64,000 nt of DNA from Eubacteriales bacterium (GTDB lineage Bacteria > Bacillota > Clostridia > Oscillospirales > CAG-272). Positions 41,729 through 64,000 of this stretch are shown piece by piece (position 1 is the first letter of the stretch; every line of letters begins with the position of its first letter). The position numbers were made by a program, and so were the translations under genes. The notes beneath the pieces were generated by a model, which had not been told where the DNA came from, did no database searches, and saw only the letters and a program-made list of their open reading frames with translations. The DNA lies in NCBI GenBank assembly GCA_045658565.1, contig JAZOVF010000008.1, positions 49,051 to 113,050 on the forward strand, read 5' to 3'.

Positions 41729-41956
41729 AATTCCAAAAAACCTTCCTTTTCCTGAGATTGTAGTTATTTTTTACAACGGCAGTCGTCTTTATTCGCAAAG
41801 CCGCAAAAAACTTGACAAAAATCAAAGGGAGTAAAAAACGGTGTGCCGTGGCTGTGATTTTTGCTTTGTAAACATTAACAGATTATGTGTTTTAGTCTTA
41901 AAATCAATTTCCCACGGCTCAGAATGACACGTATTGCGCACAATGTTTGCACACTT

Positions 41957-53937: not shown

Positions 53938-54111
53938 TATATTATACCACATAAATACTTTCGTTTCAAGTAATTTTTTAAAAAAAGCTCTATTATTGTC
54001 TTCCTGAGGCACAATTAGCTATTCTGCCACTCAGAATGACAAAAAAGCCTTCCACAAATTAATTTCGGGAAGGCTTTTAAACTAAATTGAAAATCTATTC
54101 TGAATAGCGCA

Positions 54112-61763: not shown

Positions 61764-62927
61764 ATGAAAAAAATCAAATTAATGAATAAAATTGCCGCTA
61801 TCGGCACTGATGTTTTTGATAAAAACGTGTATGAGGTTTCCGAGAACGTAGAAGCACCTGATGCTATGATGGTGCGTTCTGCCAACCTTCACGAAATGGA
61901 ATATAACCCAGAGCTTCTTGCAATTGCAAGAGCGGGCGCAGGTGTAAACAACATTCCTACCGACGAGTGCGCTAAGCGCGGTATTGTTGTTTTCAACACC
62001 CCCGGTGCTAATGCAAACGGAGTTAAGGAGCTTGCAGTTGCGGCTCTTATGCTTGCTTCCCGTGACGTTGCCGGCGGTATTGAGTGGGTTAAAGCTAACG
62101 CAGACGATGCTAATATTGCAAAGACTGTTGAAAAGGAGAAATCAAAGTTTGCAGGCTGCGAAATCCTTGGCAAGACCCTTGGTGTTATCGGCCTTGGCGC
62201 TATCGGCGGTATGGTTGCAAATGCGGCAAAGAACCTCGGTATGAAGGTTGTTGGCTGTGACCCCTATCTTACAGTTAATGCGGCATGGAGCCTTTCCAGC
62301 TCGGTTCACCATGCACAGAGCTATGACGAAATTTACGCAGTTTCAGATTACATCACTCTTCACGTTCCCGCCACAGCTTCAACAAAGGGAATGATAAACA
62401 AGGAAACTATAGCAAAGATGAAGGACGGTGTGCGTATTATTAACCTTGCCCGCGCCGAGCTTGTCAATACAGAGGATATTAAGGAAGCCCTCGAGTCAGG
62501 AAAGGTTGCAGCGTATGTAACCGACTTCCCAACCCCCGAGACAGTTGGTCTTAAGAATACCGTAAACATTCCCCACCTTGGCGCATCCACCGCAGAGAGC
62601 GAGGATAACTGTGCGGTTATGGCAGCGCAGGAGCTTTCTGAGTTCCTTGCAACAGGAAATATCAGAAATTCCGTTAACTATCCCGCGGTTTCTATCCCCC
62701 ACACAGGCGCAGCCCGCATCTGTATAGCTCACAAGAATATACCCAATATGCTTTCCCAGATTACAGTTATCGTATCCGGAGCAGGCATCAATATTGAGAA
62801 CTTCTCAAACGGCTCTAAGGGCGACTTCGCTTACACTATCGTTGAGATAGGCGTTGATGTTCCCACAGCTATCGTTGCGGCTCTTGAGGCTATTGACGGA
62901 ATAATTAAGGTTAGAGTAATAGATTAA
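61764..62927 (+). CDS. serA: D-3-phosphoglycerate dehydrogenase with C-terminal ACT domain
   Basis: RAGAGVNNIP, NTPGANAN, GLGAIG, PHLGAST; follows serC. Confidence 0.95.
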   Translation: MKKIKLMNKIAAIGTDVFDKNVYEVSENVEAPDAMMVRSANLHEMEYNPELLAIARAGAGVNNIPTDECAKRGIVVFNTPGANANGVKELAVAALMLASRDVAGGIEWVKANADDANIAKTVEKEKSKFAGCEILGKTLGVIGLGAIGGMVANAAKNLGMKVVGCDPYLTVNAAWSLSSSVHHAQSYDEIYAVSDYITLHVPATASTKGMINKETIAKMKDGVRIINLARAELVNTEDIKEALESGKVAAYVTDFPTPETVGLKNTVNIPHLGASTAESEDNCAVMAAQELSEFLATGNIRNSVNYPAVSIPHTGAARICIAHKNIPNMLSQITVIVSGAGINIENFSNGSKGDFAYTIVEIGVDVPTAIVAALEAIDGIIKVRVID

Positions 62928-62961
62928 ATAATGTTCACGGCACCCCTCGGGGTGCCGATTT

Positions 62962-63199
62962 TGTCATCCTGAGGCGCACAGGGCTTATTCGAGGACGAAG
63001 AGTCAGCCCCGAAGGATCTCCTTTCTCGAACCTATTGCAAGTTCGGTCTTTTGCAGGGATGCACCTCGATAAAACTGACGACCGATGGTCGCCCCTACAA
63101 TTCACCTTTGCAAATCCAAAAGGGAATAAGGCTCCGAGAGGGAGATTCTTCGTGGTGAGATTTTAGTCTCCGAATATAATTTCTGCCGCTCAGAATGAC
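62962..63199. repeat. Empty GTCATCCTGAG-type palindromic element with a nested GTAG-type REP
   Basis: Left arm tgtcatcctgag...cgaaggatctcc; right arm ggagattcttcg...ctcagaatgac; internal acgaccgatggtcgcccctaca at 63078-63099. Confidence 0.8.
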
Positions 63200-63488
63200 G
63201 GATTATTTGCGACTTTGTAACCATATATAAAAATTACGGCACCCTTTACGGGTGCCGCTTTTGTTTGTGTAGCGACAACTTGGAATTTGCGTATTTCCCA
63301 ACAATCGGAGTTTGTTTTTTGCTTGTGGGAGGGGATCGCATTTTGTTTTGCATACATTTCTCCTAAAAGATATGATTTTAACCACATATGATTGGTTACA
63401 AATATATTATAAATCAGATGTGATTAAAAGTCAACACTTTTTTAATCATATATGATATAATTTTACAAAATAATATTTGGAGGAAAGT

Positions 63489-63707
63489 ATGATTTACGCC
63501 AACAGACTCAAATATTTGCGTGAAGCTCGTGATTTAACACAATCTGATATTGCGAAAGTGTTAGGGACGACTTATCAATATTATAGCACTTACGAATCGG
63601 GAAAACGTGAAATGCCTTTTTCGCGGGCAATCGAGCTTGCAAGGTTTTATAATGTATCCCTTGATTATCTTGCGGGCTTTACTGATACACCGAGAAAATT
63701 GAACTAA
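63489..63707 (+). CDS. XRE-family helix-turn-helix regulator
   Basis: RLKYLRE...TQSDIA...YESGKRE...FYNVSLDYLAG; GGAGG RBS. Confidence 0.92.
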   Translation: MIYANRLKYLREARDLTQSDIAKVLGTTYQYYSTYESGKREMPFSRAIELARFYNVSLDYLAGFTDTPRKLN

Positions 63708-63740
63708 TAATTGGATTAAACTGTGGACGGAACACTTTTT

Positions 63741-63810
63741 TGTCATCCTGAGGCGCATAGAGCTTATTCGAGGACGAAGAGCCTACCCCGAAGGATCTCC
63801 TTTTCCGAAC
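63741..63810 (+). repeat. Second copy of the GTCATCCTGAG left arm, directly upstream of the GIY-YIG gene
   Basis: 63 of 70 identical to 62962-63031. Confidence 0.9.
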
Positions 63811-63872
63811 AGCTAAAAGCTTATGGCTGGCAGGTAGGAGCTTGTATAATCTGAGCAAAAAGGGCTACTAAT

Positions 63873-64000
63873 ATGTACTACGTTTATATACTCACGAGCA
63901 AAAACAACAGAGTTTTGTATATTGGTGTTACGAATGATTTGAAACGCCGAATATATGAACACAAAAACGAGATTGTAGATGGATTTACAAAAAGGTATCA
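63873..64000 (+). CDS. GIY-YIG nuclease family protein (partial; not in the supplied ORF track)
   Basis: MYYVYILTSKNNRVLYIGVTNDLKRRIYEHKNEIVDGFTKRY... Confidence 0.9.
   Translation, partial: MYYVYILTSKNNRVLYIGVTNDLKRRIYEHKNEIVDGFTKRY

Follow-up and report, generated by a model that had tools for sequence, protein, structure and literature searches.

A GIY-YIG nuclease gene between inverted hairpin repeats in a Clostridial genome: a probable member of the Ssn/SRM system

At the end of a 64,000-nt stretch of DNA from a Eubacteriales bacterium (Bacillota; Clostridia; Oscillospirales; CAG-272), hereafter the window, begins a small gene for a single-domain GIY-YIG protein that lies between two inverted, hairpin-forming repeat units, with a gene-less copy of the same arrangement close by. 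The window covers positions 49,051-113,050 of the forward strand of contig JAZOVF010000008.1 in assembly GCA_045658565.1, which in the shorthand used below is C8:49051-113050 of the 1.67-Mb source genome G000. This locus is probably a Clostridial member of the system formed by Ssn nucleases and their Ssn-related motifs (SRM), as judged from a comparison with SsnA and the domain model cd10448 by description and not by alignment. We place it there because the repeat units carry a GTC tag, a foot with AT...AT ends and a following C, and because the protein has Y5, Y16 and E63. The published system (Chenal et al. 2025, Nat Commun 16:2388) is described as a single-domain GIY-YIG nuclease specific for single-stranded DNA (ssDNA) together with hairpin repeats, termed NTS or SRM, that have a 5' GTC tag and a 3' C and follow the order repeat-gene-repeat (PMC11893778). 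What is observed directly is how the Clostridial repeats are built and how many there are, that their units covary internally, that they accompany the gene across genomes and that the catalytic residues of the protein are intact. What is new here is modest, namely Clostridial units with G.A-rich stems that the published pattern misses, and their REPIN-like doublets.

The GIY-YIG gene and its flanking units

The Ssn-like single-domain gene encodes 104 aa (C8:112923-113234), its first 42 codons falling inside the window (63873..64000, plus strand). Residues 1-74 match PF01541 (E 3.1e-17), and no other domain is found in the protein. The comparison set consisted of 80 loci with homologues of this protein at 54-95% identity, mostly from Clostridia metagenome-assembled genomes (MAGs) and in one case from a Gammaproteobacteria MAG. 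Across 81 homologues, with a median length of 93 aa, Y5, Y16, R26, H30, E63 and N82 are conserved in 80-81 sequences (Y5 and Y16 in 81/81, E63 in 80/81). Y5, Y16 and E63 are each one position off Y6, Y17 and E64 of Neisseria meningitidis SsnA, an equivalence by position and not by alignment. In SsnA, a 94-aa single-domain GIY-YIG protein assigned to cd10448, the substitutions Y6A, Y17A and E64A abolish cutting (PMC11893778). We also considered a GIY-YIG homing endonuclease of the I-TevI type and rejected it, the protein being a single domain of 104 aa encoded between genes and scoring 20.7 bits against TIGR01453 (cut-off 56).

Upstream of the gene lies the second copy of a 73-nt direct repeat (63738-63810), which is 90% identical to a first copy at 62959-63031 and stops 62 nt short of the ATG (63873) of the GIY-YIG frame; the arm that the first-pass annotation had placed 62 nt upstream of the gene and again at 62962 is therefore real. 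A 16-mer from the start of the arm has 5 matches at <=3 mismatches in the window where 0.25 are expected, a number reached in 0 of 100 shuffles. The repeat units were located with a model, R1, built exclusively from units of genomes other than the source genome. R1 matches the left unit of the gene-bearing doublet at 63738..63801 on the plus strand (C8:112788-112851, 33.9 bits) and a right unit on the minus strand beyond the window end (C8:113293-113356), so that repeats flank the gene on both sides as in Ssn loci. The whole gene-bearing doublet spans C8:112791-113353 (563 nt), with its left part at 63741..64000 on the plus strand of the window and 303 nt extending past the window end. Its right arm begins about 65 nt after the nuclease stop codon, shares 90% identity with that of the gene-less copy and ends in ...CTCAGAATGACA at C8:113353; a right arm at this place had been set as a test beforehand, and it is present.

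The gene-less doublet (62962..63199, 238 nt, no strand assigned) is made of two inverted units, inner arm extensions and a central spacer. Its left unit (62959..63022, plus strand) has TGTC, the foot ATCCT...AGGAT and then C, and is matched by R1 at C8:112009-112072 (33.9 bits, E 3.7e-5); its right unit (63140..63203, minus strand) has the foot ATTCT...AGAAT on the minus strand and is matched at C8:112190-112253 (27.6 bits). The right arm ends in CTCAGAATGAC at 63199. The doublet folds into a single long imperfect hairpin of -90 kcal/mol, fold energies of doublets being computed here and below with RNA parameters, and contains no open reading frame (ORF) >56 aa, in agreement with the earlier description of an empty element.

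Profiles of the two arms, searched with blastn and iterated nhmmer, give 25 matches each in the source genome and delineate about 14 related elements on 9 contigs. Nine are complete doublets of 209-285 nt that fold into long hairpins of -49 to -102 kcal/mol, and the others are shortened, cut by a contig end or single arms. One copy bears the gene (563 nt) and about 13 are gene-less; tblastn finds a single nuclease gene of this type in the assembly. R1 finds 18 units in the genome, and the left arm repeats the right one, inverted and imperfectly, across about 97 nt. Other small repeats are nested within some doublets. At least one separate family of small G+C-rich palindromic repeats (GGGGAAGG ... 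CCTTCCCC, with ends CCTCATCC / GGATGAGG) is scattered through the genome and nested in several of them, with sites at C31:24740-24800, C31:49060-49160, C8:140101-140240 and 140320-140370, C32:19327-19470 and C4:63664-63720.

Covariation within the unit and association with the gene

In an alignment of 36 units from other genomes the unit reads G-T-C, A-T, one triplet of a covarying pair, G-A, an inner hairpin whose length varies, G-A, the other triplet, A-T and C, with the G, T and C before the foot and the C after the closing ...AT invariant in 36/36. Since these units were chosen for self-complementarity, their pair counts are biased towards structure; the unbiased figure comes from a search of the 80 homologue loci with the anchors GTCAT, three free bases and GA on the 5' side and GA, three free bases and ATC on the 3' side. 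This search returned 125 arms in 37 of the 80 loci versus 1 match in the reversed sequence. The foot triplets are complementary in 100 of the 125 unfiltered arms, with 5 pair types, compared with a mean of 41 and a maximum of 57 in 1000 shuffles. Within an arm, a 5' ATYCY always fits a 3' RGRAT, with TGTC as 5' tag, and the units of the source genome all start TGTCAT or AGTCAT. The shortest inner hairpin is GCGAAGC; this core and the G.A mismatches are confined to one strand, and because of the purine mismatches the fold is specific to one strand. The sequence GCGNAGC is reported to form an extraordinarily stable DNA mini-hairpin (PMC13037366).

The conserved structure is thus the hairpin inside each arm and not the pairing of the left arm with the right that the first-pass annotation had described. 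Covariation lies within the arm (100/125), and of the convergent pairs in which both arms are self-complementary only 10/30 have the same foot type in both. The long left-right hairpin was also tried as the selected structure and rejected: across 7 complete copies, 17/28 cells agree at four variable pair columns, with G-U and A-C mismatches alike. Variants of the foot occur next to homologous genes. ATTGC/GCAAT flanks the gene in one locus (L122, 1345-1400 and 1878-1925) and is also found in L056, L062, L066 and L068, and ACCCT/AGGGT is found in L120 (1871-1903). R1 recognised the L120 unit but missed the ATTGC/GCAAT units of L122, and the counts of unit-bearing genomes given below are therefore probably too low.

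The units accompany the gene far beyond the source genome. With an nhmmer profile, a unit lies <=150 nt from the ORF in 69 of the 80 homologue loci, and four of the 11 loci without one have repeats with another foot type. R1 makes 188 matches in these loci, and a 10-mer end motif occurs in 64 of them. The ORF lies between convergent units in 18/80 loci by script and in a further 6 by R1 coordinates (L030, L060, L071, L072, L075, L076), and a complete doublet stands just upstream of the ORF instead in 21/80. In L067 and L072 the ORF nearly fills the loop, 1-18 nt separating the ATG from the unit before it and 3 nt the stop from the unit after it, and gene-less hairpins adjoin in tandem.

The same association is seen in two samples of 151 genomes each, drawn from the order and from the phylum, for which we give counts without a statistical test since the genomes are related and not independent. 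In the order sample 23 genomes carry units; a close homologue (E <= 1e-20) is found in 11 genomes, each of them one of these 23. Protein matches at E <= 1e-5 occur in 33 of the 151 genomes, with the gene in single copy in 30 of the 33; 18 genomes without units have only weak matches (E >= 1.7e-18), many of them in long frames. In the phylum sample, units occur in 11 genomes, the 6 best protein matches all fall in unit-bearing genomes, and 5 unit-bearing genomes are without a close homologue. About 30 further genomes in this sample hold distant homologues (31-42% identity) and no units, so the association with the repeat belongs to a subclade only. The earlier expectation that small GIY-YIG genes and arms would go together across genomes was thereby borne out. 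Within the genus, the gene is matched in 5/25 genomes including the source genome, and elsewhere unit counts reach at least 141 (G027), at least 120 (G107), at least 80 (G292) and at least 71 (G034).

Two unusual settings of the gene were observed. In the Gammaproteobacteria MAG (L030:1650-2080), units of the type described here flank a homologue with 57% identity, and about nine half-units repeated in tandem every 49 nt come after it, which suggests either that the gene spread horizontally or that the contig was mis-binned. The 23S rRNA genes of G271 (L124:1301-2000, C1) and G334 (L126:1301-2000, C1) also contain small GIY-YIG ORFs, with 48-53% identity to the window protein; each occupies the loop of an inserted hairpin (CCAGCACTCAAC ... 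GTTGAGTGCTGG) that is bordered on either side by ordinary 23S sequence, and G334 has a second such ORF at C1:887676-887888.

Comparison with the Ssn/SRM system and other known systems

The Clostridial locus resembles the published system in its single-domain GIY-YIG protein of ~94-104 aa with Tyr, Tyr and Glu at matching positions, in the GTC directly 5' of a foot that starts AT... and ends ...AT before a C, in the many copies per genome, in the repeat-gene-repeat order and in the location of the repeats nearly always outside genes. The importance of the tag and the closing C is known from the NTS, in which cleavage depends most on the three nucleotides that precede the palindrome and binding on the C that follows it directly (PMC11893778). 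The covariation-supported hairpin is an SRM trait as well, and the relatives' units, at 25-50 nt, fall within the 20-50 nt of SRMs, those of the source genome being longer (~56-64 nt). In the published survey, SRMs lie near 71% of Ssn homologues and on both sides of 42% of Ssn homologues, and the gene is present in 137 of the 169 genomes that exceed 200 SRMs (PMC11893778). The Clostridial units differ in that their foot, ATYCY/RGRAT, precedes G.A mismatches and either a core of the GCGAAGC type or an inner hairpin that varies, whereas the NTS is a G+C-rich perfect palindrome. Units of the source genome are furthermore long (~64 nt) and built into 209-285-nt doublets with extra conserved inner arms.

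Several observations weigh against this assignment, which is a judgement from sequence features. The nearest solved structures, which are only weak best matches, are the UPF0213 proteins 1ZG2 (BH0048, E 7.9e-7) and 1YWL (EF2693, E 0.02), and these may belong to a neighbouring GIY-YIG subfamily. The published degenerate SRM sequence gives 5 matches in the source genome, none at the units, versus 10 in the reversed control, and 2 matches in the 80 homologue loci versus 1 in the control. Among the 23 unit-bearing genomes of the order sample, 12 are without a close homologue, and four unit-bearing genomes (G034, G074, G100, G150) match PF01541 solely in a frame as long as UvrC (616-626 aa); these four are 96-100% complete by marker genes, and repeats and repeat-flanked genes are often lost from such assemblies. 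The source genome has ComEC-like and DprA-like genes, but the same families occur in 10 and 11 of 14 control genomes, and because they are near-universal in the controls they say little about DNA uptake.

The failure of the published SRM sequence is explained by its origin, since the 29 genomes listed as lying behind it contain no Firmicutes (PMC11893778). In Supplementary data 4 of the same paper, the Clostridia listed are mostly scored YES for cd10448 by psiblast, NO for a CDD score > 100 and NO for tblastn, and SRM enrichment is only 0.4-2.0 fold in 14 Ruminococcus rows and in those of Anaerotruncus, Acutalibacter, Serpentinicella and two Clostridium entries (PMC11893778).

If the analogy with the published family holds, the nuclease would bind the folded unit only in ssDNA and on one strand, and would nick a few nucleotides 5' of the GTC tag. 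SsnA itself is reported to bind the NTS only as ssDNA, on one strand, and to cut a few nucleotides upstream, leaving double-stranded DNA and RNA untouched (PMC11893778). The copies of the unit in the genome would then mark the sites at which ssDNA is cut, the substrate being either DNA that comes in by transformation or conjugation or DNA exposed at replication forks or in recombination intermediates. Such a cut would shorten the homology and so alter recombination there. In N. meningitidis, loss of ssnA raises transformation by NTS-bearing DNA about five-fold (PMC11893778). It is on this analogy that we infer ssDNA cutting by the 104-aa protein, its putative role in the organism and any part it may have in the spread of the doublets.

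Other known systems share some of these traits. Repetitive extragenic palindromes (REP), their REPIN doublets and the associated RAYT (TnpA-REP) likewise combine self-folding extragenic palindromes that have a short unpaired 5' tag and form inverted doublets with a single-copy nuclease gene between two inverted units, and with an action on single-stranded hairpins that here would follow from the likeness to Ssn. They differ in that the gene described here is a hydrolytic GIY-YIG and not a Y1 HUH enzyme of the IS200/IS605 type, so that rejoining of strands is not expected, and in that the tag is GTC and not GTAG or CGTC. The first-pass annotation's picture of a RAYT/REPIN-like pair with a GIY-YIG enzyme is therefore apt as a description of the architecture, and the analogy is drawn in PMC11893778 too; what does not stand is its novelty of kind, as the locus fits the Ssn/SRM system. 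MITEs (miniature inverted-repeat transposable elements) derived from insertion sequences (IS) are similar in having intergenic, gene-less copies of 190-285 nt with inverted ends that resemble the gene-bearing copy, but here the gene-bearing copy holds no transposase, target-site duplications are absent and the ends are self-folding units in place of plain terminal inverted repeats. UPF0213 and the Slx1/YhbQ/YazA group share the small GIY-YIG (URI) domain, yet the sequence likeness is weak (see the E values above). Slx1 is described as a structure-selective nuclease and the founder of a family that includes YhbQ and YazA (PMC7017083).

Rival readings, mobility and genomic context

The closest competitor to a recognition-site role agrees with the Ssn assignment on the parts and differs on the purpose of the nuclease. 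It takes the doublet for an active mobile element, IS-like or REPIN/RAYT-like, whose nuclease cuts beside both end units and thereby releases the doublet or has it copied, so that it spreads to fresh intergenic locations; gene-less copies would be non-autonomous deletion derivatives moved in trans. The Discussion of the Ssn paper, which notes that repeat-gene-repeat resembles an insertion sequence and makes the comparison with REP and RAYT, raises mobility as a hypothesis (PMC11893778), and we regard it as a possibility with rather less in its favour than against it. In support, the likeness of some gene-less copies to the gene-bearing one extends past the units, and they look like deletion derivatives of it; one, at C31:24593-24701, matches over 109 nt at 81% identity and reaches the sequence just upstream of the ORF. 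The relative L002 has two composite doublets of about 405 nt that agree at 97% and have three nested insertions in common; similarity between the two runs from TCATCC... at the left to ...ATGAC at the right and ends at the units, and one of them occupies a place that is empty in the source genome. The spacer that holds a doublet on C11 has an orthologue in the closer relative G057 from which the doublet is missing. The copies are also intergenic (12 of 14 elements overlap no open frame >=120 aa) and, as the counts given above show, the units are numerous in some genomes.

Against mobility stands above all the chemistry. GIY-YIG enzymes hydrolyse DNA without a covalent intermediate, and the nuclease alone therefore cannot rejoin strands in the manner of a Y1 HUH transposase. 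By eye, no target-site duplication is seen at the ends of 9 complete copies, the gene remains single-copy in 30/33 genomes with a match, and units persist where the small GIY-YIG gene was not found, as in G034, G074, G100 and G150. A clean empty site was likewise not obtained. The C11 spacers of the source genome and G057 differ by several events, which makes the exact junction unreadable, and within the genus serA is only 64-76% identical in DNA and synteny is mostly lost. In four sequencing runs with contigs of an L002-like strain, the joint repeats the L002 arrangement and no joint skipped an element; in the RNA run, coverage is limited to the downstream gene. The activity demonstrated for the published family is site-specific cutting of ssDNA beside the hairpin, with an effect on natural transformation, and not transposition. 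Of the earlier proposal of an autonomous and a non-autonomous pair, the one gene-bearing and ~13 gene-less copies stand, and movement driven by the nuclease is putative. A bolder form of the same idea is a doubtful one in our estimate: unit-gene-unit would be a working mobile element of an undemonstrated kind, in which an ssDNA-specific nick at each hairpin lets host replication or repair copy the segment elsewhere, gene-less doublets ride along, and the Ssn repeats of many bacteria are progeny and not just recognition marks.

The repeats might instead be independent of the nuclease, as host hairpins or hairpins mobilised otherwise, with the small GIY-YIG gene a selfish, homing-type ORF that settles in hairpin loops. 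The dependence is indeed one-sided, close homologues always occurring in unit-bearing genomes and not vice versa, homologues at 48-53% identity sit in an inserted-hairpin loop inside the 23S rRNA genes of G271 and G334, and the gene is patchy in the genus. We nevertheless consider this improbable. The published family binds and cuts the repeat itself, so that gene and repeat are functionally matched (PMC11893778), the foot types vary by lineage, with ATTGC/GCAAT and ACCCT/AGGGT each flanking their own genes, which suggests co-evolution, and the protein is without a DNA-binding domain of the homing-endonuclease type. That the units act as RNA structures, stabilising 3' ends or terminating transcription, with the nuclease gene merely among them, seems very improbable. 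Several units do abut terminator T-tracts, REP-like repeats elsewhere can act in RNA (PMC3733652), and the units of the complete genome G292 are oriented with the replichore and thus with most of its genes (31:14 vs 9:26, p = 2.6e-4 per unit), orientation relative to replication being inseparable there from gene orientation. The bias is not significant, however, with tandem clusters counted once (15:11 vs 4:10, p = 0.10), the doublets put the structured strand on both DNA strands, and the published enzyme is reported to bind no RNA (PMC11893778). Rfam gave no family match either: there was none at the gathering score across the whole window and none in 20 homologue loci with E allowed up to 0.1, and the matches in 62800-64000 with E allowed up to 10 stay at chance level; the Pedo-repair RNA (RF01715) matches neither 62800-64000 nor those 20 loci.

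The surroundings of the two doublets add further detail. Terminator-like hairpins on the plus strand flank the gene-less doublet, as the first-pass annotation had stated. One follows serA (assigned by Pfam 2-Hacid_dh_C/ACT) at 62938..62957, with 8 pairs and a T-rich tail that runs into TGTCAT, abutting the left end of the element; the other, with nearly the same stem, lies at 63237..63257, 37 nt past the right end. Because of this distance the pair is not a simple target-site duplication, and the same duplicated arrangement of serA-type terminators occurs in L002. Further arms had been noted near 41890 and 53997, and they correspond to a right-arm remnant on the plus strand that ends in GGCTCAGAATGACA (41890..41929; read by eye against right arms and missed by the 16-mer scan at <=3 mismatches) and to a 43-nt mini-palindrome made of the outer ends of one left and one right arm (53998..54040, no strand assigned). 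Between the left unit and the ORF, a promoter-like TTGTATAAT at 63839-63847, seen by eye, was not listed by the consensus scan.

In one genus relative (L085, from G008) serA is followed directly by typA/bipA, and as about 2 kb separates the two in the source genome (window coordinates 62928-64996), the whole stretch looks inserted. It holds both doublets, a small minus-strand membrane-like gene and, at 63477-63707, an XRE-type helix-turn-helix gene (PF01381, E 1.1e-15). Just upstream of the latter, a 20-nt inverted repeat with 85% complementarity and a 10-nt spacer (63410-63459) overlaps a strong minus-strand promoter-like site (11/12) and may be an operator. Contigs end within SRM-like repeats in the source genome (C4:129015-129120 and C18:12318-12458), and in other MAGs many R1 matches lie <200 nt from contig ends. 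Because contigs so often end inside them, the repeats break short-read assemblies, and repeat-flanked genes may drop out of bins, which bears on how metagenome-derived genomes are read.

The system to which we assign this locus is already published, and the value of the present analysis lies mostly in its extension. Gut Clostridia carry a variant of the repeat that the published pattern misses, and the family's repeats are for this reason probably under-counted in Firmicutes. The variant foot (ATYCY/RGRAT, with G.A mismatches and a core of the GCGAAGC type) would yield a further enzyme/site pair for ssDNA tools, should the enzyme prove active. For the family as a whole, the appearance of gene-less copies as deletion derivatives and the L002 composite that ends exactly at the units offer circumstantial evidence on the question, raised in the Discussion of PMC11893778, of whether the repeat-gene-repeat arrangement is or was mobile.

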